Shown: positions 2,262 through 31,116, counted from the stretch's first letter. The stretch is 64,000 nt of DNA from a virus (IMGVR_UViG_3300037258_000375:32001-96000); one strand, 5' to 3'. Notes: generated from the sequence alone by a model not told the origin. A program made the numbers and translations.

Positions 2262-2399
2262 GCTAGCACACGAAAGAGAAAGGGATATACCGATGGCGCG
2301 CAAAGGATATAAATATCACCTCACAGTTGCGGATGTGGCCAAGATTTTCGATTGCTTCCCGGATGCCGTCCTGACCCGCTCCGATCGGAGGGAAACACA

Positions 2400-2720
2400 A
2401 TGGAAAAGCTTATGAAACGTCTGCACTGGTACCAACTCGCTTTCGTAGTAGTGACGGTCACAATCGCCGCCATGGCTTCGCACACCACCCGCAAGATCAC
2501 GAAGCCGGTCACCGTCTACCTGCCCGACGCGAACCAAGCCACAGCGACTCTGTGTGTGTCGAATCGCACGCACACAACCGTCATCATCCCGCACGGCGTA
2601 GCCATCAAGGCGGGCCACGCCGTGAACGCGTCCGTGGTTCGTGACTTCCAGTGGGAGTTCGGCACGCCATACCCGGCCACAGATCGCGCGGACGTTGACT
2701 GTTTCGTGGTCTCGCAATAG
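2400..2720 (+). CDS. hypothetical secreted/membrane protein
   Basis: GGAGG RBS before ATG 2400, N-terminal hydrophobic stretch. Confidence 0.55.
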   Translation: MEKLMKRLHWYQLAFVVVTVTIAAMASHTTRKITKPVTVYLPDANQATATLCVSNRTHTTVIIPHGVAIKAGHAVNASVVRDFQWEFGTPYPATDRADVDCFVVSQ

Positions 2721-2774
2721 ACCCGATTGATAGCGACCAACTTGATAGCGAGCGACAAACCGCCTGGAGGAAAT

Positions 2775-3218
2775 ATGCCTAAGACGAAGGAACAGGTACA
2801 AGGGCTCATTGCAGCCCTGCATGATGCAGGATACGAACCGCGCAGCTACAGCGGGCGCGGCATGAACGGCAAGCAATGCGTAGGTGTCTCGGCTACCAGC
2901 GCATTCGGCATCGGGGCGGCGCTTGAGGACATCACCGCGCCGGAGCCGTGCCAAGATCAACTCGGCAAGCGATACATTTTCTATTGGCCTGCGTATGAAT
3001 GGCCTGGAGTCTACGACGGCCCATGTGCGGCAGATGGTCTTTTGAGCTATCGCTACCCTTCCGCGTATGGCGGATGGATCATGATCGGCGCGCTCGACAA
3101 GGCACAAGCTTTGAGCGAAGCACGCCGCTCCACTGACAGCGAAGTGTCTCTGGCAAAGCTCGAAACTTGGAGCGAGACCGACAAGCAGTATGTGGCCGTC
3201 ACTTCTACAGACAAGTAA
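2775..3218 (+). CDS. hypothetical protein
   Basis: GGAGG RBS; RSYSGRGM..K.C.GV motif of the kind seen in phage early proteins. Confidence 0.65.
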   Translation: MPKTKEQVQGLIAALHDAGYEPRSYSGRGMNGKQCVGVSATSAFGIGAALEDITAPEPCQDQLGKRYIFYWPAYEWPGVYDGPCAADGLLSYRYPSAYGGWIMIGALDKAQALSEARRSTDSEVSLAKLETWSETDKQYVAVTSTDK

Positions 3219-3247
3219 TCACACACGAAGCACTCGGAGGGAAAACG

Positions 3248-3490
3248 ATGAAAACGAAACTCGTCTATAGCGCAGCGCTGCTCCTCCTCACGTTCGCATC
3301 CGCGACCGCGACAAGCCGCGCACCCGAACCAAAAACCAAGCTGCAAGTCATCTATCGCGAAGACCCGCAGCAAGGTCAATGGAACGTCTACATTTTTGGA
3401 ACGGTGTGCGAGGAGGGCAAGCTCACTCTTCATCAGCCAGCGGAGCCGCGCGTTGAACCGCTCCGCATTGAATGTGTCGAACCTCGCTAA
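3248..3490 (+). CDS. small secreted protein
   Basis: GGAGG RBS, signal-peptide-like N-terminus. Confidence 0.55.
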   Translation: MKTKLVYSAALLLLTFASATATSRAPEPKTKLQVIYREDPQQGQWNVYIFGTVCEEGKLTLHQPAEPRVEPLRIECVEPR

Positions 3491-3527
3491 CCGTCCGAAG
3501 CCTGGACAGAAATACGGAGAGAACACC

Positions 3528-4115
3528 ATGAGCAATATCCACGAGAACTACGACAACCTAACGGAAGAGGAACGCGAGAGACTTGACGTGGCGTTCAAGG
3601 CGCTCACCAACTCACTGCGCCGAGACGGCATACTTTTCGACGGCGGAGATCAGATCGAGCGCAGCGTGGACGCCGTCGCACTCGCCATCATCAGCGCGCG
3701 GGCGCTTCAGGAGTTTGTCCGTATGGACATCGCAGTCCGCAACGCCACCGAACGTGACATGATTGTGGCCATCCCATCCTTGACCGCTGGGCTCGTCTAC
3801 CGCGTTGTCGAGCCTGGGAGCCCGCTGCCACCGCCGCCCATGGTCATCATGCAACACCACAAGACCGACTACACGAACGAACAGATCAGAGCCGTCACCA
3901 ACGCCGCCACGCAAATGCACCAATGGTGGACTCTCATCAGCGAGAAGGAGCGGCAAGAAATCGTAAAGGGCATCAAGGGCTGCCATAACTATGGAGCCAC
4001 CATCATGCTCCAAGCGATGCCGCAAGAGGGTAAGGATGCCGTCCGCATCGCATACGCAAACCACTTGCAGCATGTTCTAGAACTCGAAGCGGCACATCCA
4101 GAACACAAGGGGTGA
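3528..4115 (+). CDS. hypothetical protein
   Basis: GGAG RBS before ATG 3528. Confidence 0.6.
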   Translation: MSNIHENYDNLTEEERERLDVAFKALTNSLRRDGILFDGGDQIERSVDAVALAIISARALQEFVRMDIAVRNATERDMIVAIPSLTAGLVYRVVEPGSPLPPPPMVIMQHHKTDYTNEQIRAVTNAATQMHQWWTLISEKERQEIVKGIKGCHNYGATIMLQAMPQEGKDAVRIAYANHLQHVLELEAAHPEHKG

Positions 4116-4548
4116 ACCATGGCAACGATGCGCGTAACCAACATTCGCGGTACCGCAAACTTCGTCATCACTCGCGACGACGGCCACCAATTGAGCATGG
4201 CCGAAGATAACGAGGTGATCCACTTCTCCGGACTCGTCCCCGCCGAGGATCACGGGCGCGTCTTCAACGTACAGAAGTTCCTTGCGATTGCTCTCCAGTT
4301 CGTCGCTATGGAAGAAGAGTGAGGTTGATAATAGACGACGACAACCGCATCGCCCAATTCCTGCGCAAGCGTGGCTGGCAGTATGCCTACACAGTCAAGC
4401 TGGGAATGTACAAGAGAGTCATGTGGCGCTCTCCGCGCGAAGACGAACTCTACGGCCAGGGGATCGCCTACAACCTGGAGCGCGAGAACGACCGGATCGC
4501 CAAGCTCCGCGACAACGCACAACGGTTCATCGAGAAGGGACATTGACC

Positions 4549-4833
4549 ATGAAAATAACAGCAGCAAGTAACCCCCGTGAGGTACTCGACATTCAGCAGG
4601 CAGCCGAGTACCTTGGCATCGCAGCAGACACACTCTACAAGTACGCTGCGGAAGGTTCCCTCCCAGCTTTCAAGCTGGGCAACCGGTGGCGCTTTCGCCT
4701 CACCCACATCAATGAGTGGATAGATCGCAAGGCATACGAGCACACCGTGTACGAATCGGAGCTTCGTTCATCGACGGAGCCGAAGCGCGAAGCTTTGATA
4801 AAGACCAATGCGAATGGTCGCGCCAAGTCCTAG
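4549..4833 (+). CDS. excisionase-family helix-turn-helix DNA-binding protein
   Basis: VLDIQQAAEYLGIAADTLYKYA..GSLPAFKLGNRWRF. Confidence 0.85.
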   Translation: MKITAASNPREVLDIQQAAEYLGIAADTLYKYAAEGSLPAFKLGNRWRFRLTHINEWIDRKAYEHTVYESELRSSTEPKREALIKTNANGRAKS

Positions 4834-5098
4834 GGAGGCCACCGATGAGATTCCTGCATATTATCGACCACGTCCTCGGTGTCATCTTCGCTGTCTATTT
4901 CTTCGTCGTGGCCGTGATCTTTGCGGGCATGGTTCTCACGCCGACAGAAGGCTCACGCGAGGCTGACAAGGACATCCACGACAAACACATCCATTGTATG
5001 AGCGACAGGTTTGTTCTTCTCAACATCAAGCTTTATATCTCGCTGATATGTCCTATCCTCTACGTCGAACATCTTTGGAAGGATCGGGGGAAATAGCT

Positions 5099-6028
5099 AT
5101 GTTCGCAACCTACATGAGAGCACTGGAGAAACGCGCGGGCTGGGCACGCTGGGCAGAGGAATATGTCACCAAGCGCATGGATCACTCGAAGACGCCGAAC
5201 TATGACCACGTGATGCTTTTCTATAAAGCAAGCTTGATGCACGGGGACACGCTGTACATGAACAAGGAATTTTGCGCCCTGGTCGATCACGCCCGCGCAA
5301 CGGCCCCCGACGATCTTGTCTTTGAGGATAGCTGGATGCAGACCCCGTCCGGATTCATGTGGCTGGAGATTCCGTTCCGAGTTCCCCGGCCCGCAGAGTT
5401 TGATGACACCAGACTCCTCGACCAAGGTATAGACGTCGATCCGCACCTTCACGCTGTATCGTGGTTCAAACAGGATGGCGGCTATGTGTTTCTTACCTAT
5501 CAAGACTGGCATGATGTCCATCCGAACGCCGAAGGGTTCGGATGCTGGAGCCATTTCATCATGCGCCCCGGCGACGTCTTGGCCGAACGCATGAAGCGCT
5601 TCGAGACGACCGCGTTCGATCCGGATGCACCTGGGCATGGCGTCTATGCCAGAAGCGCTTTGAATAACAGCCTGCATGAGATGCGCTGGGTATTCACAGC
5701 AATGCACCTCATGGCGCAACGTCTCTCTATGACAGTCGAGCACCGTGCAAGCTCCATGGCTCGCGACTCAGCACGCCGCAAGAAGCTGGCCATCACTCCG
5801 TTTCTCAAGGTAGTCACTCTCCGCAGGATGGAAGCAGAGCGGCCCGCAGGCGGAGAGCACAAGCAGCATGACTGGCAATGGAAGTGGGTAGTCCTCGGTC
5901 ACTGGCGTAACCAGTGGTATGAGACCGACAAGACACACAAGCGTATCTTCATCGAGAGCTACATGAAGGGTCCGGATGACAAGCCACTCAAGATGCCCGG
6001 TCATACTCTCTTCAAAGTTCTGAGATGA
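5099..6028 (+). CDS. hypothetical phage protein
   Basis: Long ORF; C-terminal W.V.GHWRNQW..I..Y.KGP motif. Confidence 0.7.
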   Translation: MFATYMRALEKRAGWARWAEEYVTKRMDHSKTPNYDHVMLFYKASLMHGDTLYMNKEFCALVDHARATAPDDLVFEDSWMQTPSGFMWLEIPFRVPRPAEFDDTRLLDQGIDVDPHLHAVSWFKQDGGYVFLTYQDWHDVHPNAEGFGCWSHFIMRPGDVLAERMKRFETTAFDPDAPGHGVYARSALNNSLHEMRWVFTAMHLMAQRLSMTVEHRASSMARDSARRKKLAITPFLKVVTLRRMEAERPAGGEHKQHDWQWKWVVLGHWRNQWYETDKTHKRIFIESYMKGPDDKPLKMPGHTLFKVLR

Positions 6029-6050
6029 ACTCACTAGCGTAAAGATTTTC

Positions 6051-6080
6051 TTGACATGAACACGACAGATAGCGCAGACT
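6051..6080 (+). promoter_or_regulatory. putative phage promoter TTGACA-N18-CAGACT
   Basis: Same motif with AGCG before the -10 at 12230-12258 (+) and 31165-31193 (-). Confidence 0.55.
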
Positions 6081-6104
6081 AAGAAACGATCCGGGGGATG
6101 ACGC

Positions 6105-6845
6105 ATGACAAGAGTTTTATCTATTGACTGGGATTACTTCTGCGAGGAAGACCCGCTGCTTGATATAAACCACCGTGAGTGCGATCTATTTCTCGAACAG
6201 ATGTGGGCAATCCGTAAATTTCACGCCAAGATGGAAAAGGGAAAGTTCGTCCTGGTAGACGGCGTGCCAGAAATAGTCGAGAGAGACTTTACCAAGATGC
6301 TTCCCTTTCGTGGGAGCGAACGTCAAGTCCTGGACTTGCCTTGCCTGCAATCTAACTACCAGATCGGCATCGCCGAAAGCCACGTCGCCATCCTCGAAAT
6401 GCTCGGGGATAAACGCGGGCTCGACATCGTGAACATCGATGCCCATCATGACCTTGGCTATGCCGAGGCTGATGACGATTACCACTTCGAGATGCATAAC
6501 GCCGATTGTGGCAATTGGGGCGCTTACTTGATCGTTTCCAGGCGCGTGAACTCCTTCACGCAGATATACCCCGCGTGGCGCAAGAAGTTCCGCGAGCATG
6601 GTTCCAGAAACACCGGGATCGGCTGGGCCAGGAAGAAGCTCAAAACCAAGATGCGCGTCTCCAATCTCCCGCCATGCGAGGTGGTCTCGTGGGATGAGTT
6701 GGATTATGTGTTCTTGTGCCGGTCCGGATGTTGGACACCGCCTGACTATGACGAGCGCTTCAACACGTTTTGCCGGATGCTGGGCAGCGAGGCAACGTTG
6801 CCAGTCCGTGACATTTCGGCCAATCCGGAGGTAAAGATCGCATGA
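6105..6845 (+). CDS. arginase/deacetylase-fold (UPF0489-like) metallohydrolase
   Basis: LSIDWDYF, SH, NIDAHHDL, CGNW, CRSGCWTPP. Confidence 0.6.
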   Translation: MTRVLSIDWDYFCEEDPLLDINHRECDLFLEQMWAIRKFHAKMEKGKFVLVDGVPEIVERDFTKMLPFRGSERQVLDLPCLQSNYQIGIAESHVAILEMLGDKRGLDIVNIDAHHDLGYAEADDDYHFEMHNADCGNWGAYLIVSRRVNSFTQIYPAWRKKFREHGSRNTGIGWARKKLKTKMRVSNLPPCEVVSWDELDYVFLCRSGCWTPPDYDERFNTFCRMLGSEATLPVRDISANPEVKIA

Positions 6846-7233
6846 GTGAAGCTAAAGCTCGTCTACAGGCTATGTGCCGCCGTCTCGCCCTCGCGCCAGT
6901 TCGCGTGTGTAAATCACTCCATCAGTGTGTGTTTTGTGGCCACCCGATCACTGTCGGCAATTCCTACAGAGATCGTGGCTATGGAGAGCGCGCGCACGTC
7001 ATTTGCTTTGAAGCCGTCAACCGTGAAGTCAATAAGGTCCGCAAGTGACCTGCATGACATGCAACGGTGACAAGTGGCTGCGCCGCGAGGTTCCGCACAA
7101 GTACATGCGAGAAGTCACCGTCACAACTGCGCGCATCTGCCCGCAGTGCAAGGGGACCGGAGTTATGCCGAAGATCGCACCGCCCGATCCGAGACAGTTT
7201 GAAGCAGAGGCTATAGAAAGCTAGGGGGTATCT

Positions 7234-21680: not shown

Positions 21681-22178
21681 TCACGCCAAGTGATTGCGTG
21701 ATCCACTCAGACTCCTGGGCGGTGGTCGTAGCCCCGCTTTACGTTCGTCGCGAAATCTTTGTTGCTTTTGCCGCTCACACTCTCTACATCTACGTGATCC
21801 TTTTCGCGAGTCGATTATTAGATTCTCTCCCTCATAGGGATGACCGCGTGGACAGTGAGTTTTTCTGCTCTCTTTATTGTTTGTCACTAGGTCAGCATTA
21901 AGAGCCTGCTCCCGAGGAGTTGCCCACCGACAGTTTTCAGCGGTGTAATCTCCATTATTGTTTTCACGATCTAATGTCTTCCCTGGTGGTCGTTCGCCCA
22001 TGTCTGCATAAAAATTCGCGAAACTGTTCTGCCAGCGTTCACAAATCTTTATCCCACGTCCGCCATAGCGCGGGTATTTGTGGGATTTTGAATTGAGGCA
22101 TCGTTCTTTCATTGCGCGCCACGAACGATACGTCCGCGTTTCTCCCTGCTTTCGCGTGCTGTGCCCATGTTTCTTCAT
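21681..22178 (-). CDS. HNH homing endonuclease
   Basis: YRSW.AMK.RC, YGGRGIKIC.RW, TLDR.NN.G.Y..ENCRWAT, KTHCPRGHPY. Confidence 0.88.
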   Translation of the reverse strand: MKKHGHSTRKQGETRTYRSWRAMKERCLNSKSHKYPRYGGRGIKICERWQNSFANFYADMGERPPGKTLDRENNNGDYTAENCRWATPREQALNADLVTNNKESRKTHCPRGHPYEGENLIIDSRKGSRRCRECERQKQQRFRDERKAGLRPPPRSLSGSRNHLA

Positions 22179-22945
22179 ATTGCCGACATCGGATCATCAA
22201 GTGTATGCTGCTGAGCGCGTTTCCAAAAGTCATGCTCATCTGCCCTGATAGCCAATAAGTCCGCCAACACTTGGTCTGATGGCGGATATACGCCCACGTG
22301 GGTGCCTTGATACCAGCCGAGACAATGGGAACACAAGGCTGCGAGAAAATGGAAATAGACCTTGTCCGCTTTTTTCTCCGGCTTCAGCGCGAGAGTGGGA
22401 AGGCCCTTGCGCAGGCAGTACATCACGCCAGAGCGCTTGCTCTTCTCCAGAAAGGCCCCGGCGAGAATGTAGCTGTCATGCTGCACTTCGTTGAGACGCC
22501 GGAGCAGTGCGCCCATGGCCTTCCACTCCGCAACGGGCTTTACCGCTCCGGCTTGGCAGATCATCGAAGTGATGTACATGTCGAGACGTTCGTTTGTGGT
22601 CACGAACTTCTCCACGATTGCGCCCTTCGAATGCTTCGCCACCGCGATTGTTTTTGGCCGCGTCGTCCAGACATTCACGACCATAGGCGAGTCGTCCTGC
22701 TCATCGACGTCCGAGGTGGAGCACACGCGCACTTCAGGAACGCCATTCATCGAGACAGGCACATCGTGACCGTGCTTGTCGGCAAGCGGGCAGCCCTTCG
22801 CAAGAACGATCTTGCGATCCTGGTCGAAGATGCTCACGATGGGCACGCCGTGGTGCCAGCCGCGCGCTTTGCAGAGTTCATGCACGCCGGATCGGAGAGA
22901 TTCCCAGGTGAGTTCTCCCTTGATGGGCAGTAGGTCTGTGGCCAT
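22175..22945 (-). CDS. CxH/P..D/DE..F family protein (paralog of 29768-30421)
   Basis: A..L...L...Q...Y...G.F, YxLR, LCSH, PPSD..LA.LL..R.DE..F...A. Confidence 0.7.
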   Translation of the reverse strand: MATDLLPIKGELTWESLRSGVHELCKARGWHHGVPIVSIFDQDRKIVLAKGCPLADKHGHDVPVSMNGVPEVRVCSTSDVDEQDDSPMVVNVWTTRPKTIAVAKHSKGAIVEKFVTTNERLDMYITSMICQAGAVKPVAEWKAMGALLRRLNEVQHDSYILAGAFLEKSKRSGVMYCLRKGLPTLALKPEKKADKVYFHFLAALCSHCLGWYQGTHVGVYPPSDQVLADLLAIRADEHDFWKRAQQHTLDDPMSAI

Positions 22946-22946
22946 A

Positions 22947-23312
22947 CTATCCTCCACTTCGCGGCGCAATCGCCACCGTTCGTCCAGATTCCGGACTCAC
23001 TCTCCCATACGATGCCCTACGTGGCAGCCCCTTCGGCCTGCCACGGCCTTTCTTGCGAGGCACTGTCTCCACGGCTTCATCGGGAGTTTCCTGTGTGTCC
23101 AGGCGAATCATGAGCTTGTTCGTCACCGGATCGTAGCCCAACACCCTGTACGTGTGAGTCACATCGCCGATTTCCCTTTCGAGAAAGACGGCGGACCCGG
23201 ACTTGATGAGATCGCCGACGAGCTTGGCAGCTTGCTTGCGGCCATCCTCGTTCGTTGTGTCGATCTCTGAGTTGTCATCGCCGGAAAAGCTATTGAGGAT
23301 TTGGATATTCAT
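22947..23312 (-). CDS. small protein ending in di-Gly (paralog of 30862-31116)
   Basis: ILN..GD..D..N, L.KSG, YDP, C-terminal APRSGG. Confidence 0.7.
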   Translation of the reverse strand: MNIQILNSFSGDDNSEIDTTNEDGRKQAAKLVGDLIKSGSAVFLEREIGDVTHTYRVLGYDPVTNKLMIRLDTQETPDEAVETVPRKKGRGRPKGLPRRASYGRVSPESGRTVAIAPRSGG

Positions 23313-24445
23313 ATGACCACCTCTGAGTACAACACCCGTTCTATCGCGCTCGGTCCATGTGCCGTGATGGCCACAGGCACACGTAGGTTCGCCGCCATCG
23401 AGTAGAGAAAATCAACTTCCGACTCACCGATACGTGGCAGGTAGTCTAGGTGGCTCACTGCGAGGTAATCGACACCGCCGATGATTCGGAGAGCCCGCCG
23501 CGCCATGTTGAAATCGAACTGCCCCACCCGAAACTTTCCCTGAAGCGAGCTATCGGAGTTGTGTAGCTCTGGCAAATCGAGCGCTGGGTCTTCGCTCGGG
23601 AACGGACCGGCACCGTGGCGCGTGTAATAGCTGCGCAGGCAGCCGACGCGGGTACGCTCTTTGACTTTCGCTTCATCGAGAAGTGTATTCGCATTTTCGA
23701 AGGTAGTGTTCGTCCAGGTGTTGTGCGGCGCGGTGCCGTACGTCTCATCGAGCATCACGCCCTGTGCGCCCTCAAAGACCATGCATTCTTCCGGCTTGAA
23801 GTGATCGACGATCTTGGCTGGCCAACTCTCGAAGTCGGCCATGGTCCGGCTGAGAACTGCTATGTCTTTGCTGCGATGAATGACGATGCCCAGTTCTTCC
23901 CGAAGCTTCACGATCTCATCGAGAAGCATATCCGAGATAAATGTGAGCTTACGGCGGAGCGTGACCAGATTCTGCGTGTCACCAGCGTAGGGAACATAGA
24001 GCGGGTGCTTTATCTGCATCTCTCGCGCCACACCGATGCCCATTCCGCAGCTTCCATGTCTTGCATCGCCGCGCGCCATCTCGCGAAGTTGATTGAGATG
24101 CTTATGAAACGGCGTGACCAGGAGCGCTCTCTGATCGACTGTGGTGCGGTCCCATACGTCTCCCGCCAGATTTGAAAGCTCTTCTGCCTCTCGCATCATC
24201 GACACCGGATCGATAACCATGTAGCGCGAGAGAAATGTCTTCACGTGCGGGTTCGCCAGTGTTCCCGCTCCAAACTGCGCGAAGGTGTGGTGGTCTCCCT
24301 CTGGAGTAACCACGTTGTGCGCCGCCTGAGAGCCGCCGTTATAGCGCACCACTAGATCGACCGGATATTCACGACATAATTTATCGACACATGCCCCCTT
24401 GCCTTCGTCTCCGAAGGCAAGTCCTGCCACAAGAAATGCTTTCAT
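23309..24445 (-). CDS. adenylosuccinate synthetase-like protein
   Basis: GDEGKG, RYNGG.QAAH, HGSCG.GIG, EGAQG..LD, YTRHGAGPFP. Confidence 0.85.
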   Translation of the reverse strand: MKAFLVAGLAFGDEGKGACVDKLCREYPVDLVVRYNGGSQAAHNVVTPEGDHHTFAQFGAGTLANPHVKTFLSRYMVIDPVSMMREAEELSNLAGDVWDRTTVDQRALLVTPFHKHLNQLREMARGDARHGSCGMGIGVAREMQIKHPLYVPYAGDTQNLVTLRRKLTFISDMLLDEIVKLREELGIVIHRSKDIAVLSRTMADFESWPAKIVDHFKPEECMVFEGAQGVMLDETYGTAPHNTWTNTTFENANTLLDEAKVKERTRVGCLRSYYTRHGAGPFPSEDPALDLPELHNSDSSLQGKFRVGQFDFNMARRALRIIGGVDYLAVSHLDYLPRIGESEVDFLYSMAANLRVPVAITAHGPSAIERVLYSEVVI

Positions 24446-24724
24446 TTATTCCCCCAGGTTCTTTATACACACCGTAAATGCAGTGAGCGGGCGGTTCGGC
24501 CTCCCGTCCGGGCGAAGCGGATGCGTGTCGCTGATCTGACGGTAGAAGGTCATAGCCTGCGCCCCATCGTCGAATCGCTTCGCCTCGGCGAGGTTGAAGG
24601 TCGTAGTGAGATCGCCATGGCCGTCGTGACCGTTAGGGTCGTACGTTTTCACATACGACCCCTCCAGTTCGGACGGCAATGACTCAAGCCCGCCAAGCCG
24701 TTCGATTTGGATAACGGCGCTCAC
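24446..24724 (-). CDS. hypothetical protein
   Basis: Coupled ORF; RPDGRPNRPLTAFTV. Confidence 0.6.
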   Translation of the reverse strand: MSAVIQIERLGGLESLPSELEGSYVKTYDPNGHDGHGDLTTTFNLAEAKRFDDGAQAMTFYRQISDTHPLRPDGRPNRPLTAFTVCIKNLGE

Positions 24725-25659
24725 AGACGTGCGGCCTTGCCTGCTCCGGACGTCGTCAGCGCAGCCGCCGCGTGCGCGCTGTGCTTCACCAGGGCATGTG
24801 CTTCGTGATCGCTCACGCCGACCGCAACCAGATCGTCAACGACCGAGTCTGCCGACTTCTCTTCACAGAGAGCGACGGTAGAGGCGATGAGTTCGCAAAT
24901 CAGGTTCGCGTGCTGCAACACAAGAACAGACTCTTCTCCGAAAAGCTTCTTGTATTGCTCAAACGAGTGCTGATAGGAACCGTGCGGCCAGATCACGAAA
25001 ATGGTAAAGTTGCGGCGTGCTTCTTCGATGATCTCTGCGATGGGGATGTCGGCCTGGATGGTATCGCCGAACACAGCGTGGACATGCTTTTTCCCCACTT
25101 GATCGAAGATCGGCTCGTCTGCGAACATGAAGAAGTATCCCTTCTTGTCACGCTTCTCCAGGCAATCGAGGCTGACCTTGCGCGCCGCCGCATAAAGCAG
25201 CAGATCGTAAGACTCGCCGTGATTAGAGCCGCCTTGGCCGACAAGCCAGATGTTCCGGATGTGCTCATCCACGCGGATATCGCTCTCGAAGTCCGAAATC
25301 TGGATGCAGTTCTTGCCGACAGAAAAGAAGTCGTCGTTCGCGGCAACGGCAACTTGCGGGTCCGGCAAATACTTATTCAAGAGGTCCATGAGGTTCGGGA
25401 GCTTCTTCTGCGCATCGACGGCGCGGTCGTAGTTCGAACCGGTTACGTCGAACGCGACCAGCACTGCATTCGATGTCGGATGCTCAGCGGAATCCCGCGA
25501 TTCAAGCTTGCCGACAGGCTTTGTGTTAATACGCATCGGGTCCAGGTTCGCATGAACCGAACTCGCGGTTGTTGTGTAGGCAAAGTCTGGCGTGCCTGAA
25601 GCACGACGACTTGAAGTTGTACTGTGATATGTACCTGAGTCCCAGCGGCCACCGCCCAT
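24721..25659 (-). CDS. vWA domain protein
   Basis: MGGGRW, ESRDS.EHP, FDVTGS, GGxNxGESY, KGYFF..ADE. Confidence 0.85.
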   Translation of the reverse strand: MGGGRWDSGTYHSTTSSRRASGTPDFAYTTTASSVHANLDPMRINTKPVGKLESRDSAEHPTSNAVLVAFDVTGSNYDRAVDAQKKLPNLMDLLNKYLPDPQVAVAANDDFFSVGKNCIQISDFESDIRVDEHIRNIWLVGQGGSNHGESYDLLLYAAARKVSLDCLEKRDKKGYFFMFADEPIFDQVGKKHVHAVFGDTIQADIPIAEIIEEARRNFTIFVIWPHGSYQHSFEQYKKLFGEESVLVLQHANLICELIASTVALCEEKSADSVVDDLVAVGVSDHEAHALVKHSAHAAAALTTSGAGKAARL

Positions 25660-25671
25660 GATTTCCTCCGC

Positions 25672-26715
25672 TTACGTCGGCAAGTTGAATGCGATCCACT
25701 TCGGAGAGCCGTACTCCTTAGCAGCCGCCTCTTTCCAGTCCTGCAAAACATCTCCAGCTTTCTGGTAGCGTTTCTTATAGTCAGAATCGAGGCACTTCAC
25801 AAGAATTTTTCCCAAGGCGGGCATCCACAACGATCCGCAAAGATACACCATCAACTTCGCGGCCATGTAGATGTCCGAAGCAGGGCCGATGTACTTCTTA
25901 GACAGAAGCTCTGGCGCATAATGGTCCTGCCACGCCGGAATCCAGGATGACAGTCTTGTCCGCTCTTCGTAATTGACTGAATAGCACCAGTCGATCATCC
26001 GGATGGAGTGCTTGCGTGGATCGACACCGGAGCCTCCGTCGTTATCTGGATAGAACATAACGTGTGGCGGAAGGATCGCCCCATGCACCAGCCGGAAGTG
26101 ATGTGTCCATGTCAGTACAGCCAAAATCCTCTTAAACATCCAGACGCCGGTTCGCGTGTCAACATTCTCGATCTTCACGTGAACTTGCTGCGCGGTCACG
26201 AATCCTGAGAAATTCGTGATGACGTTCGCCTCGCGCTTCATCGTTGCCTCGATCCAGAAGTTGTCGATTAGCACAGGTACGCCTTCGCGGATCGGCCCGT
26301 CAATCTTGCTCAACGCTTTGAGTGCGACGATCTCCGCCCTAAGAAGGTCGTTGTCATCGTGATTTCTCGCAACCTTGATGAGTTCCTTGCCGCCTTCCGT
26401 TGTGTAGAGATCGGCGATGTCGCCGATGCGTGGGTGCGGCTTGGCGTTGTACTTACCGATCTTCAGAGGAACGCAGTGGGGGAGCGGAAGACGCTTGCCC
26501 CAATTGCCTTTCCTTACTCGAATATCGGCCTCATTCTTCAACGCGGAGAGTTGCTGGAACACTTTCGCAGCGAGCGGCTCTGTCGGATGAAAGTCGGGGT
26601 GACAAGACCGCGCGAGCTTCCTGAAGACCACAGACGGATCATCTCCCGATCCGAATACATCCTCCGGACAGCACGCGCTCTCCAGCTTATCGTGCATCAA
26701 TTGCAATTCGCTCAT
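25672..26715 (-). CDS. J-domain-like plus Ser/Thr kinase-like (pseudokinase) protein
   Basis: FRKLARSCHPD; GDIADLY, K.AR..DNDLL..E, VHGAILPPHV, IDWCYS, YAPE, SDIYM. Confidence 0.8.
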   Translation of the reverse strand: MSELQLMHDKLESACCPEDVFGSGDDPSVVFRKLARSCHPDFHPTEPLAAKVFQQLSALKNEADIRVRKGNWGKRLPLPHCVPLKIGKYNAKPHPRIGDIADLYTTEGGKELIKVARNHDDNDLLRAEIVALKALSKIDGPIREGVPVLIDNFWIEATMKREANVITNFSGFVTAQQVHVKIENVDTRTGVWMFKRILAVLTWTHHFRLVHGAILPPHVMFYPDNDGGSGVDPRKHSIRMIDWCYSVNYEERTRLSSWIPAWQDHYAPELLSKKYIGPASDIYMAAKLMVYLCGSLWMPALGKILVKCLDSDYKKRYQKAGDVLQDWKEAAAKEYGSPKWIAFNLPT

Positions 26716-27347
26716 GCAGCTTCGTCCATGAACTTGCGCCGGGGCAAGATCGGTCCACTTGGCTTCACGCCTAAAGGATTTTCCGTGTAGCCCTCATACC
26801 ACGGTGCGGTTGAAGGAAGCGATAGGCGAATGAACTGGCGATCCACGTCGCCAAGCTGGCGGGTCGATTCATGCACACACATCCCGTCCACCCAATAGAC
26901 CATGCCTGGAGCGAAGATGGTGCCCGGAGAGCGTAGCTCGCCCCGCAGATGCTCGCAGCTTCCCTCTTCTCCCACTTCACCGTGGAATTGCTGCGCCCAG
27001 GCGCAACAGCCCGCGTGCGAAGACACAGTGAGCATCCCAGTCGCTCTGCTCGCCCAAGGCGCACCTCCACCCCATCCGCGACCCTCCCCGCCATCTACGT
27101 GCAGTCCTGCGCGCCGATGCGTTCGTCCGAGGGCAACCGTCTTCTCATCGATGGTGAGGTAGCCGACTTTCCCCAAATGCTTCGCGTCCATCATCCGGAA
27201 AAGGCACCACGCCACATCCCAGTAATGTAAAACAAAATCGGGAAAGGTCGATACGCCCCCGAGAATAATCGGAAGCATCATGACCCGTGTGCCCGAGAAC
27301 GGCGGTAATTTAACTTCGCCGACTTCGCGAAAAGTGCTTGTAAACAT
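26712..27347 (-). CDS. putative 2OG-Fe(II) oxygenase-fold protein
   Basis: YLTIDE, HRR.GLHVDG (HxD), HES, RQFIR. Confidence 0.55.
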   Translation of the reverse strand: MFTSTFREVGEVKLPPFSGTRVMMLPIILGGVSTFPDFVLHYWDVAWCLFRMMDAKHLGKVGYLTIDEKTVALGRTHRRAGLHVDGGEGRGWGGGAPWASRATGMLTVSSHAGCCAWAQQFHGEVGEEGSCEHLRGELRSPGTIFAPGMVYWVDGMCVHESTRQLGDVDRQFIRLSLPSTAPWYEGYTENPLGVKPSGPILPRRKFMDEAA

Positions 27348-27375
27348 ACCCTTCCCCCTTTTACTCATACACGAA

Positions 27376-28707
27376 CTAGAAGCTACCGCTATCGCCTCCG
27401 AAGCTACCGCTATCCCCGCCTCCGAAGTCCGATGAAGATGACGAGTCGCTGAAGCTGCTACTGCTGCTGTCGTCAAAGCCGCTCGATGACGATGAATCGC
27501 TAAAACTACTGCTACTGCTGTCATCGAAGCTGCTCGATGACGACGAGTCATTCCAACTGCTGCTCGATTCCTCTCGAACCGCGACCGGCTCCGGCTCTGG
27601 AACGAAGACGGGCTCGATGATGGGAACAATGACCGGGCTGGGGCCATAATAACCATCGTCGATGTACGCTGGCCGAGCAGGGGCCTTATTGATGATCGTC
27701 GTATTCGTCACAGACGGAGACGCTGCCGGAGCGGCCTGCGGAGGGGTTGGAGGTGTAGGGCCGGGTTTCGGAACGTCGGGATCAGGATTGCCCGCAGGAG
27801 CGGTAGAGTGGCCGTCGCCGGAATGCCTCGAAGCACTACGATCAAACCGGAACTTGCGCGAAGCTTGAGCTACTTCCGCATCGACTTTGTCGGCAATCCA
27901 CTTATAGCGCTTCCCGATCTCCTCGTACTCCTCGATGTCGAGACCTTTCGTATCCGGATTGAAGGTCTCGCTCTGGTTCAACCGGGAGAACTCCTCCGAC
28001 AATGCGTAGTTAGTGCTGTTGATGATCTTCCCCGCCGCCTCGTTCCGCCATAGCACCGCTTGTTGCTGCGCCAGGAGACGCTTGCGCCGGAAGTTAAACA
28101 GGGCGAGAATACCGATCACGCAACAACCGAGAAGGATCGCGCCAAGCAACCAATCCAGCCATCTCCAAAGTCCGGACATGTCTGTTGCTTGCTTGGTAAT
28201 AACGGTGGTGGCCGGATGTAGAGCCGCCGTTTGAAATGCTTCGATCTGCACTGCGGCTTGAGACATACCGGCAATCATGCCCCGTGTCCAGTCGCCGTCT
28301 CGGAAGGCGGGAGCCATGAACTGCGTGCGGATCACAGACGTATTGAGTGCCCGTCCGAACTCGTTCCCCACAAACAACCCCGCCGCGTGCCGCTTCGGGA
28401 ACACGAGGAACACGATCAGGTTGTTCTTCACTCCTCCGCTGGCCGATTGCCACGATGGACACTCCTTCTGTAGTGTGGCGACGTACTGCTCGGGCGTGGT
28501 CTTGGAGGTGTCATCCAAGATCACGCGCGGGTCGGCACCCTTCGCCGCGAGCATAGAAGCAGAATGAACAAGCGCATCACCCTGACCGCTCCTGAGAAGC
28601 GATGACGGGTCCGCGAAAACTGGCGAGTCGCACGAATGCGAAAACACTTGACTCCAGCCCATGGAGGCCAGAGCCACAAATATGCAGGCGATCAAAACTC
28701 GTCTCAT
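27376..28707 (-). CDS. TPM-domain membrane protein with Pro-rich and Ser/Gly/Asp-rich tail
   Basis: Signal peptide, NNLIVFLV, M.PAFRDGDW..G, TM helix, low-complexity C-terminus. Confidence 0.75.
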   Translation of the reverse strand: MRRVLIACIFVALASMGWSQVFSHSCDSPVFADPSSLLRSGQGDALVHSASMLAAKGADPRVILDDTSKTTPEQYVATLQKECPSWQSASGGVKNNLIVFLVFPKRHAAGLFVGNEFGRALNTSVIRTQFMAPAFRDGDWTRGMIAGMSQAAVQIEAFQTAALHPATTVITKQATDMSGLWRWLDWLLGAILLGCCVIGILALFNFRRKRLLAQQQAVLWRNEAAGKIINSTNYALSEEFSRLNQSETFNPDTKGLDIEEYEEIGKRYKWIADKVDAEVAQASRKFRFDRSASRHSGDGHSTAPAGNPDPDVPKPGPTPPTPPQAAPAASPSVTNTTIINKAPARPAYIDDGYYGPSPVIVPIIEPVFVPEPEPVAVREESSSSWNDSSSSSSFDDSSSSSFSDSSSSSGFDDSSSSSFSDSSSSSDFGGGDSGSFGGDSGSF

Positions 28708-28757
28708 GGAACTTCCTTTCACATCGAGCATTCGAGGGAGGGTTTCCGTGTGGTCGT

Positions 28758-29417
28758 TTATTTCAGTGACGCGAGAAGGGCATCCACTTCAGGGCTGTTC
28801 GCGTTCGATGGTTGAGGCGTTGTGGTGAGTGCCCGGTCAAACTCAGCGCTGGCTACATCGTTGTGGCGGCGCATTCTTTGCTCCACATCATCGACGGATT
28901 GATTGCCATCAAAGCCAAGTGCGGCATTCGCTTGGGTCAACGCGGAAGCGGCCTGATGCTTTGCCTTCGTGTCCATATCCAGGCGTTCGAGTTCACGCAC
29001 GCGAGCAACCATCAACTGATGCTTCGCGTTCAACAAATCGGCGGACTCCTTCAGCTTGGCCACCACGGTCTGTTGGTCGGTGATGTCGGTACCCATCTTC
29101 GTGAAGTGCGTCGTCTCTTCGACGATGTTTGCGGCCTTCATCCGCGCTGCCTGAGAATTGGGATCGGCAATGAGAATGGCCTTGACTTCCTTCTTCTGTG
29201 ATTCAATTTGATTGCCGAGGTCCTGGTATTCGCGGGTGAGCGTACGCAGTCCGCCATCCTGCGCAGCGATTTCGGTATTCATCTTGCCCATCGCGTCTTC
29301 GAGATCACGGCAATACTGACGCACGGCAGATGGTGAGTTCGCGTCAATCTCTTTATCCAGCAGATCATGTGCTGCACCCAGCGTGACGACGCGAAGCTTT
29401 TGCAGAAAACCAGTCAT
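28758..29417 (-). CDS. PspA/IM30 (ESCRT-III-like) family protein
   Basis: H.LLDK..D..P..VRQ..RDLE, long coiled coil, VDALLASLK end. Confidence 0.7.
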   Translation of the reverse strand: MTGFLQKLRVVTLGAAHDLLDKEIDANSPSAVRQYCRDLEDAMGKMNTEIAAQDGGLRTLTREYQDLGNQIESQKKEVKAILIADPNSQAARMKAANIVEETTHFTKMGTDITDQQTVVAKLKESADLLNAKHQLMVARVRELERLDMDTKAKHQAASALTQANAALGFDGNQSVDDVEQRMRRHNDVASAEFDRALTTTPQPSNANSPEVDALLASLK

Positions 29418-29457
29418 AAACTCTTCTCCTGGAGCGCCACGCAGTGGCCGGTTGCTG

Positions 29458-29736
29458 TTACAGTGCCGCTGCTAATTCGTAATCTTCCGCCAGTAGATCA
29501 CTCTGAGAGCACGCCCACGGTACGACGGTTCCCTGATAAGTCATCATGTCTACGTGCGACTGATACTGAATCTCCGTCCCTTCGGGATAGATACCCAAAA
29601 GCGGAAGTCGGTTCACCTGGAACTTAGAGCCCGGAACCAGGAACAGATACATTCCCTTCCCGTTCCAGCCAGCCCGACATACCCGCTCGCCGCTTTGCAA
29701 CTGTTCGAGTGCCCATCCTAATCCTTGCTTCTCCAT
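29458..29736 (-). CDS. DUF2829 domain protein
   Basis: AL..L..G..V.R.GWNGKGM.L, VPW..SQ.DLLAED. Confidence 0.85.
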   Translation of the reverse strand: MEKQGLGWALEQLQSGERVCRAGWNGKGMYLFLVPGSKFQVNRLPLLGIYPEGTEIQYQSHVDMMTYQGTVVPWACSQSDLLAEDYELAAAL

Positions 29737-29767
29737 TGATTTTTCCTTCCGCCACAACTGTGGCTGG

Positions 29768-30421
29768 TTATGCTGCTAGTCGAGTGCGATTTGCTATTTC
29801 AAGAAATTTCTTCTCATCGGTGCGCAGCATCAAAAGCTGCGATACCATGTTATCCGCATCCGGCATCCACTCCGACGGATGCGCACACAACCGCAAGATC
29901 GGTTTGCCCTTCTCGATCTGCTCGATGTTTTGCGACCGCTCCTTCTTGATCCGGTAGATGCGCTCGTTCACATGGGTCTCGAAATAGCCATGGTCTCGAT
30001 ACTGCCGAACCTGTTCTGGCTTGAGGATCGTAAACATCAACTGCTCGGCGCGCGCCTCCGCGATCTTTCGCTTTTCGGCTGCCTCGAAACGTGCCGCTTT
30101 CTCTTCGGCTGACTCGGGCGGTTGGCATCCAAGCCCAAGAATGGAAATCATTTGGTTATGATTGTTATTCATCATCTGGCTGTACATCATCTGGCTGTAC
30201 CAGATATTGGCGTTCGAGACGGTTACATAAGACATAGATGTGCCTGTCCCCCCACCTATTGCATAGGCAGAGTCCGCACTCTTCGACGCGCCCCCGAGCA
30301 GCTTTGACCAGTTATTGCTCATTTGATCCACCATCGCTTGCGCGCCATAGGCAGTCCTCGCGCCCTTCACATCCGATCCGTTCAACGCTTTTGAAATCCA
30401 CGACTCCGATTTATATGGCAT
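29768..30421 (-). CDS. CxH/P..D/DE..F family protein (paralog of 22175-22945)
   Basis: A..L....L..EQ..QY...GYF, YRI, LCAHP, P..D....QLL.LR.DE..F...AN. Confidence 0.7.
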   Translation of the reverse strand: MPYKSESWISKALNGSDVKGARTAYGAQAMVDQMSNNWSKLLGGASKSADSAYAIGGGTGTSMSYVTVSNANIWYSQMMYSQMMNNNHNQMISILGLGCQPPESAEEKAARFEAAEKRKIAEARAEQLMFTILKPEQVRQYRDHGYFETHVNERIYRIKKERSQNIEQIEKGKPILRLCAHPSEWMPDADNMVSQLLMLRTDEKKFLEIANRTRLAA

Positions 30422-30854
30422 TGTCGCTCGCCTTCATCATTCTTTTTGCTTTGTCGAGGAAGGTTTGCTCATCCTTCTTGGGAGGCCATCCGTTGGGATC
30501 GGACGGTACGAACATCTCCTGGGCCACGACAACCTGCTTGCTAGTTTGTATGCCAAGACATGTGATCTTCCGCACGAAGACGCGCCTCAGACCGCCCATC
30601 TCCTTCAACTCCTGCTCGTTGTAGAAGACGTGAAATCCGGGAGCATACGGCTTCGAGTCTAATGCGGTGATTTTTTTCCCTGGAGTGTGTTCGTCTGTGG
30701 CGGTGATCCATTTATCCAGCGGCACGTCTGCCGATTTGGCGATGGTGAACTGCTGGAAGGTCGGCTTCCTCGCGGTGCCGCCGAATTCCTTCCAGGCATC
30801 CATGATGAGGCCCGAAGGATTATCGTATGTCTCTTTGACTATGGAGAGGCACAT
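30411..30854 (-). CDS. hypothetical protein
   Basis: MCLS start, Y..GFH motif. Confidence 0.6.
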   Translation of the reverse strand: MCLSIVKETYDNPSGLIMDAWKEFGGTARKPTFQQFTIAKSADVPLDKWITATDEHTPGKKITALDSKPYAPGFHVFYNEQELKEMGGLRRVFVRKITCLGIQTSKQVVVAQEMFVPSDPNGWPPKKDEQTFLDKAKRMMKASDNAI

Positions 30855-30861
30855 AGCTCAA

Positions 30862-31116
30862 CTAACCCCCGATCATGCGCGCATGAAGAATTATGCGTTC
30901 GGCGGTCGGATCGAACGCATTGAGAACCTCACCCTGGTCGCCTTTTTTGCTGACCGAGTAAGCGAGGTAGCCTTTGGCTTTTAGCTCATTGAAACGCGCT
31001 TCCGCCTTGGAAACTTCGGCTGGGTTGTTGCGATCCCATTGCATCCGGGTATCGCCTGTGTCATCGAGTATGTTGAGTTCTCCCCCGTGGGCGCGGTCAA
31101 TGATTTCTAGTTCCAT
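30862..31116 (-). CDS. small protein ending in di-Gly
   Basis: ILD.TGD..WD..N, L..KGY, FDP, C-terminal RMIGG; own promoter at 31165-31193. Confidence 0.75.
   Translation of the reverse strand: MELEIIDRAHGGELNILDDTGDTRMQWDRNNPAEVSKAEARFNELKAKGYLAYSVSKKGDQGEVLNAFDPTAERIILHARMIGG

Follow-up and report, generated by a model that had tools for sequence, protein, structure and literature searches.

The link between bacterial ubiquitin-like conjugation and immunity against phages is a recent one, made through Bil, through Bub and through the Cap2 protein of the cyclic-oligonucleotide-based anti-phage signalling systems (CBASS). In the operons of Bil, Bub and type II CBASS Cap2, as in operons 6a-6d of Iyer et al., a small beta-grasp protein with a C-terminal glycine is encoded beside a cysteine-bearing protein that resembles ubiquitin-conjugating (E2) enzymes. 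All these operons include an activating (E1) enzyme, usually together with a JAB or other peptidase, and they serve cellular defence. Here we describe a two-gene module of comparable make-up from a phage, found in a 64,000-nt stretch of DNA (positions 32001-96000 of the virus record IMGVR_UViG_3300037258_000375; hereafter the window). The module encodes a small protein that ends in Gly-Gly (A) and a partner with an invariant cysteine (B), and the phage carries it in two copies (A1-B1 and A2-B2). Unlike its cellular counterparts, it lies among replication genes, and neither an E1 nor a peptidase gene was found with it.

Two other described arrangements are of interest. ThiS and MoaD are likewise beta-grasp proteins with an invariant C-terminal Gly-Gly, and a tight partner holds their tail. 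That partner, ThiF or MoeB, is an adenylating Rossmann-fold protein, whereas B has a cysteine-bearing alpha/beta domain that matches nothing in Pfam. The tail assembly protein I of Lambda and T1 is a phage beta-grasp protein with a conserved C-terminal glycine, and the product of an adjacent gene has been proposed to act on it (PMC1779556). Its pair with gpK (JAB plus NlpC/P60) is part of the tail module and uses JAB and NlpC peptidases, in contrast to the module described here, which has neighbours involved in replication and recombination and no JAB. A preliminary description, made from the window alone, had read the two gene pairs as paralogous and had suggested a phage-encoded system for protein conjugation or processing, with a non-canonical ligase or peptidase.

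Two diverged copies of one module

The parent virus record is 105 kb long, with a CheckV completeness of 89%. All four open reading frames (ORFs) of the two pairs were verified on the minus strand, at the coordinates given below, which count from the start of the window. In module 1, the ATG of A1 (22947-23312; 121 aa, ending APRSGG; 32 homologues) overlaps the stop of a preceding PurZ-like gene. The likely start of B1 (22175-22945; 256 aa; 35 homologues) is the ATG at 22945, one base past the A1 stop. In module 2 the order is A2 (30862-31116; 84 aa, ending RMIGG; 17 homologues), M2 (30411-30854, minus strand; 147 aa) and B2 (29768-30421; 217 aa). M2, an accessory protein that the preliminary description had missed, is the third conserved gene of this module and begins seven bases after the A2 stop. 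Searches of the 105-kb record with hidden Markov models of the four families found no further copies, and a scan for promoters and terminators returned a site count not above that of shuffled sequence.

The alignments that the preliminary description had drawn by eye are below pairwise detection, because BLASTP gave no match between A1 and A2 and no significant one between B1 and B2 (E = 2). When the B1 family (33 sequences) was compared with the B2 family (10 sequences) using hhalign, the two aligned with 92% probability (E 5.8e-7) over 99 columns, spanning exactly the motifs that had been listed from the window. Direct comparison of the A1 (32 sequences) and A2 (17 sequences) families was weak (E 0.022). 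The A-like proteins that adjoin B in IMG/VR loci include sequences intermediate between the two, and an alignment of 30 distant A1-like intermediates (A11) matched both A2 (95%, E 3.9e-8) and A1 (99.3%, E 2.5e-20). Given these bridging profiles and the B1/B2 alignment, both pairs are diverged paralogues, with an identity of about 22-24% within the phage. On this profile evidence A1 and A2 are homologous, by way of intermediate sequences, and B1 and B2 share a C-terminal domain of some 100 residues (the B-domain), so that the kinship first proposed by eye holds for both proteins. The phage holds two diverged copies of one two-gene module, which has no name in the databases searched.

The pairing of the two genes is strict. 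The B1 alignment retrieved 43 loci from IMG/VR, whereas the single B1 protein as query retrieved none. Clustering of the ORFs around B in the 38 non-redundant loci left A and B as the only families present in every locus, and they are adjacent in all 38; A usually comes first, but in five loci it lies downstream of B. There is no third conserved gene beside the pair in this set, the best genuine third family occurring in 6/38 loci. Similarly, B2 follows A2 in all 13 A2-type loci. Gene-pair co-occurrence, which the preliminary description had named as a check, is thus as it expected. Both module types are present in at least four phages, namely that of the window, the contig of loci L001 and L015, L017 (where they are contiguous) and L018. 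None of A1, A2, B1, B2 and M2 belongs to a family in Pfam, PHROGs, PADLOC or NCBIfam, and full-text literature searches turned up no paper on a phage-encoded ubiquitin-like protein (Ubl) of this kind.

The Gly-Gly protein and its cysteine-bearing partner

Gly-Gly is the final dipeptide in 17/17 homologues of A2 and in 32/32 homologues of A1. In the latter the whole tail is fixed as V-A-x-A-P-R-S/A-G-G (residues 113-121 of A1, VAIAPRSGG; codons at 22950-22976, minus strand). Nearly all A-like ORFs beside B in the 43 viral loci end in the same way, with tails A-V-A-V-A-R-T-A-G-G and variants, against a background of 1.6% of ORFs of at least 60 aa in the same DNA. The conservation of the Gly-Gly end, first noticed in two proteins, therefore extends to distant relatives. 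Among the exceptions, one A-like protein continues past Gly-Gly with 39 acidic residues (L019) and another with 20 residues (L024). There are also at least four natural A-B fusions (P0047, P0048, P0090 and P0101, the first two of the A1-B1 type), with Gly-Gly at the junction, for which a sequencing or gene-calling error is possible. A stop directly after Gly-Gly in most members, with a few extended or fused forms, is the pattern seen in Ubl precursors. The fusions also recall BubAB, a Ubl-E2 fusion that is cleaved by a peptidase (PMC11601596).

The AlphaFold2 (AF2) model of A2 (predicted local distance difference test score, pLDDT, 83) has the order strand-strand-helix-strand-strand-strand, and its fold matches were all beta-grasp domains. 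The Gly-Gly tail, modelled with low confidence, comes directly after the last strand. In A1 a folded domain makes up about the first 70 aa, and a basic linker, in which an AT-hook-like GRGRP occurs, connects it to the invariant tail. A1-type proteins in general share the domain of A2 and have a linker of 30-60 residues, basic towards its end, between this domain and the conserved tail. In the window the linker (23028-23051) has the AT-hook-like core G-R-G-R-P-K-G; a GRP core is found in the linkers of 17/32 close and 8/30 distant A1-type relatives, which hints at DNA binding by these proteins. A thus has two features of beta-grasp carriers, the fold and a conserved Gly-Gly on a flexible tail. 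It is not a member of any curated Ubl, ThiS or MoaD family in Pfam, PHROG, NCBIfam or PADLOC (E limits 0.1 to 1).

Across both B families (41 sequences) a Cys, a Tyr, an Asp and a Glu are invariant, and a His-Pro after the Cys is at least 90% conserved. The resulting C-x-H motif is Cys205-Ser-His207 in B1 (22325-22333, minus strand) and Cys179-Ala-His181 in B2 (29879-29887, minus strand); in the alignment of 10 B2 homologues Cys179 is invariant and His181 at least 90% conserved. B1 consists of a variable N-terminal domain (1-130) and the conserved B-domain (about 131-256). B2 begins with a low-complexity region rich in Q, N, Y and S, followed by a charged helix and the B-domain (about 100-217), and ends in LAA. 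Most B2-type proteins end in Leu/Val/Phe-Ala-Ala (29768-29776 in the window), even past variable extensions. Homologues with such an end are those of loci L001, L005, L006, L008, L009 and L010, and it resembles the C-terminus of the ssrA degradation tag. B1-type proteins keep a P-E-A-G-L form of tail instead.

In the AF2 model of B1 (pLDDT 82, above 90 in the B-domain) the N-terminal domain is poorly defined. The C-terminal domain has helices at 137-162, four strands (164-168, 175-179, 184-192 and 195-205) and helices at 222-243, with Cys205 at the end of the fourth strand. An ESM Atlas model of B1 was too poor to use. Structural comparison of the B-domain gave a weak resemblance to the UBC/RWD (E2) fold, the best rows being Ubc9, RWD domains and Atg10. 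Foldseek with the B1 model returned no match in the PDB and one unnamed viral protein in BFVD (E 2e-4), and the alignments of B1, B2 and M2, used as profiles against PDB sequences, gave chance-level rows only. Because the PDB search with Foldseek and the comparison with prokaryotic E2 profiles (below) were negative, we regard the B-domain as UBC-like in topology, and as unproven in that respect. The likeness to eukaryotic E2 proteins and the wider UBC/RWD/UEV superfamily lies in the modelled topology and is accompanied by no sequence relation.

Models of the A1-B1 complex support binding of A1 to B1. Three runs gave interface scores (ipSAE) of 0.64, 0.80 and 0.65 (median 0.65), and the best of three controls gave 0.00. 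A value of 0.65 was reached by 58/80 solved complexes and 2/110 mismatched pairs, a calibration that is only rough here since the alignments, one for each partner, were of our own making. The runs agreed in at least 89% of contacts, with pLDDT of at least 77 for the partners and 137-142 residue-pair contacts. On the A1 side, the predicted interface takes in strand 1 (4-13), residues 34-45, residues 52-56 and the entire tail (113-121). On the B1 side, it takes in residues 31-36, 47-52 and 135-150, Arg171, the strand with the Cys (205-211) and a loop-helix (219-236). In the model the globular part of A1 packs on the helix after the Cys and the tail runs along the Cys-bearing strand. All nine tail residues contact B1 (for example, 116 touches 208 and 228, and 113 touches 231). 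In the closed thioester state of E2 enzymes, ubiquitin packs on the helix after the Cys loop and directs its tail to that loop. The modelled placement of A on B is similar. The structure predictions that had been suggested for both families and their complex accordingly returned a beta-grasp fold for A2 and a well-scored complex for module 1.

Such an interface could also be an end in itself. A and B may form an obligate, non-covalent heterodimer in which the Gly-Gly tail is a docking strand whose carboxylate enters a pocket that admits only glycine. Its role would then be unrelated to tagging, for example DNA-associated or regulatory in replication, with the Cys, His, Asp and Glu being structural, metal-binding or catalytic in some other way. 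The extensive modelled contacts and the alternating hydrophobic residues of the tail along the strand fit this idea, as do the basic linkers of A1-type proteins, and the fusions imply that Gly-Gly is not necessarily a free end in every member. However, Gly-Gly stands exactly at the stop in well over 90% of members across very deep divergence, as would be expected of a carboxyl end that reacts or is recognised. The extended members imply processing, and an invariant Cys with a near-invariant neighbouring His would be unusual for a purely structural site. We consider a purely non-covalent dimer unlikely, though more probable than the other alternatives to our preferred reading.

The fusions and extended forms need a processing activity, and no JAB or other recognised peptidase is encoded by the phage. 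B could itself be a Cys-His peptidase that cuts after Gly-Gly, with A as its substrate or regulator and with A precursors, A-B fusions or host Ubl conjugates as its targets. In the model, the tail is held by the strand that bears the Cys and the His. However, most members have the stop directly after Gly-Gly and would need no processing, and no match to a peptidase fold was found for B. To our knowledge, no peptidase fold places these two residues on a single strand at a spacing of two. A peptidase role for B is, in our estimate, very unlikely.

Possible routes of activation

The reading we tentatively prefer, at somewhat less than even probability, is that A and B are a minimal pair of Ubl and E2-like protein that relies on an E1 of the host or subverts it. 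In this scenario, A would be a small beta-grasp protein with a free C-terminal Gly-Gly on a flexible tail. B would have an E2-like topology, in which helices and a four-strand meander ending at the Cys of C-x-H-P are followed by a helix that starts with Pro, and the two would form a tight heterodimer. An E1-like adenylating enzyme of the host, either a housekeeping enzyme of the MoeB/ThiF type or the E1 of a host Ubl defence system, would activate the tail carboxylate. The Cys of B could then take up the activated tail as a thioester, and the tail would be passed to a target or held, in the early or replication phase of infection. Much of what the preliminary description offered in favour of a conjugation or processing system stands, namely a conserved pair, a beta-grasp protein with a Gly-Gly tail, and an invariant Cys beside the modelled tail. 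Such a system stays our best hypothesis and is not a finding, each of its chemical steps (adenylation, thioester, conjugate or cleavage) being an inference.

Several observations weigh against the preferred reading. Profiles of B (A9, A8 and A5) compared by hhalign with Prok-E2_A to E all scored below 2% probability, the latter alignments being self-built from genomes and small (4-10 sequences). A scan of 39 B-domains matched no Pfam family. The invariant Cys stands two residues before His-Pro; in classical E2 enzymes the distance is 7-10 residues and the Cys comes second, as it also does in eukaryotic E2 proteins. In favour of the reading, Iyer et al. (PMC1779556, Table 1 row 6d) list E2-like families of bacteria in which a conserved His follows the Cys. 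The long linker between fold and tail in A1-type proteins is unlike known Ubls, and a divergent GenBank relative, Rctr197k_113, ends in Pro-Gly instead of Gly-Gly. No ThiF-type E1 (PF00899) and no Prok-JAB were found in the 105-kb record or in four relatives of 121-143 kb with a CheckV completeness of 100%. The PF00899 control was detected in 14/14 reference genomes, and the Prok-JAB control was also positive in reference genomes. The earlier remark that the window has no recognizable E1/ThiF or JAB gene can thus be extended to the whole record and to four complete relatives. The lack of an E1 and of a sequence link to E2 families also favours the non-covalent heterodimer discussed above.

An activating enzyme could come from the host. 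Five bacterial metagenome-assembled genomes (MAGs) have assemblies that include module-carrying contigs, and since all five encode ThiF-family enzymes, host supply is possible.

Module 2 raises a further possibility. M2 lies between A2 and B2 in 11/13 A2-type loci, is absent in two, and follows B2 in L104. It begins with Met-Cys in 11/12 homologues (30849-30854 in the window), and the N-terminal Cys of the mature protein would be chemically suggestive beside a Gly-Gly-tailed protein. In a protein ligation without E1, the Cys of B would take the Gly-Gly of A from precursors or fusions, or after some other activation, and hand A to acceptors with an N-terminal Cys. M2 is the candidate acceptor; its Cys1 would be exposed on removal of Met, and an S-to-N acyl shift would leave a native peptide bond, as in native chemical ligation. 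We give this scheme only a slight chance. M2 is of a family seen only in viruses; it matches no Pfam or PHROG family (including a Pfam scan of nine M2 proteins), and its neighbours in the ESM Atlas are all viral and unnamed, with a TM score of 0.44 to DUF7666. M2 was also considered as a homologue of the N-terminal domain of B1, and this was rejected (BLASTP; hhalign 0.1%).

Genomic setting and range of the family

The neighbours of distant A-B pairs encode helicases, an HD protein, DnaB, an SbcC-like ATPase, a PD-(D/E)XK nuclease, a cytosine methylase and, twice, DUF5131. Given these replication and recombination neighbours, the module belongs to the early or replication part of the genome and not to the virion part. 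The helicases, DnaB, SbcC-like, nuclease and methylase proteins would also suit a non-covalent A-B dimer that works on DNA or regulates replication, as would the AT-hook-like cores of A1-type linkers. DUF5131 (phage Gp37/Gp68 family) adjoins A-B in two unrelated loci (L035, 5710-6921; L043, 3195-4280), once downstream and once upstream, and is not a general neighbour.

In the window, module 1 lies between the PurZ-like gene and an HNH endonuclease gene. The PurZ-like gene (23309-24445, minus strand) matches PHROG 1211 (E 5.8e-66), labelled '2-aminooxy adenylosuccinate synthetase' and a PurZ-type family, and Pfam Adenylsucc_synt (E 4.6e-53). Judged by this gene, the phage may make 2-aminoadenine (Z) DNA. 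Translational coupling of A1 to a gene of nucleotide metabolism, together with the DNA-modification neighbours elsewhere (methylase and DUF5131), could indicate that A is a sulfur carrier of the ThiS/MoaD type. A would be thiocarboxylated by the host, and B would be a Cys-dependent sulfurtransferase for the modification of nucleotides or nucleic acids. However, the order PurZ-A1-B1 is seen only in the window and its close relative L015, the phage has no ThiF or MoeB, and A has no Pfam match to ThiS or MoaD. Nor is there a rhodanese or desulfurase family among the scanned neighbours, or a third conserved gene. We give a sulfur-transfer role a very low probability.

The HNH endonuclease gene (21681-22178, minus strand; PHROG 3377, E 2.6e-39) overlaps the end of B1 with its start, and HNH genes like it are found again in L008 and in L012-L014. 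Between the two modules, also on the minus strand, are genes for a 347-aa protein with weak matches to DnaJ and protein kinases (25672-26715), a protein that has a TPM domain and a long tail rich in Ser and Asp (27376-28731) and a PspA/IM30-like protein (28758-29417).

Module 2 precedes a gene for a protein with a Tad2-like (anti-Thoeris) domain (29458-29757, minus strand; PF11195, E 2.6e-20), which is directly downstream of B2. This position raises the question of counter-defence. A and B could mimic parts of host ubiquitin-like immune systems such as type II CBASS Cap2, Bil and Bub, namely the Ubl or CD-NTase tail together with the E2. They would then either tie up the host E1, as a decoy substrate or trap, or divert conjugation from phage proteins. 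Mimicry would explain the absence of a phage E1, a phage with two diverged copies could act against different host systems, and the family is virus-specific. However, the pair is stable and deeply conserved among replication genes, not placed in variable accessory islands, and the PADLOC models for Ubl, E1 and E2 proteins of defence systems show no similarity to it. We regard mimicry as improbable.

The family is very large in metagenomes, and the module is common among phages that have not been cultured. A B-domain profile (41 sequences) matched 8,593 representatives of metagenome clusters at 50% identity with E <= 1e-3, and 3,373 with E <= 1e-10. The same profile found only 14 contigs, all from MAGs, when one genome per species was searched (about 185,000). 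A typical B-domain had no match by tblastn in 50,697 GenBank phage records, and megablast of the region against GenBank phages gave none either. The only annotated record found with the module is L076 (GenBank KX853510.1, Virus Rctr197k; 2312-6974). There, an A-like protein with two tandem A domains, ending in Pro-Gly, is followed by two B-like genes, and a CRISPR array and a transposase are annotated just upstream.

From the perspective of phage biology, a very large phage-specific family joins both hallmarks of ubiquitin-like chemistry, a beta-grasp protein ending in Gly-Gly and a partner whose Cys is invariant, but does so without an activating enzyme. If the pair is catalytic, phages would either borrow the E1 of their hosts or use a new way of activating a protein C-terminus. 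As a decoy, the pair would represent a new class of counter-defence against ubiquitin-like immunity. The module also provides a first functional lead for thousands of unnamed phage genes.

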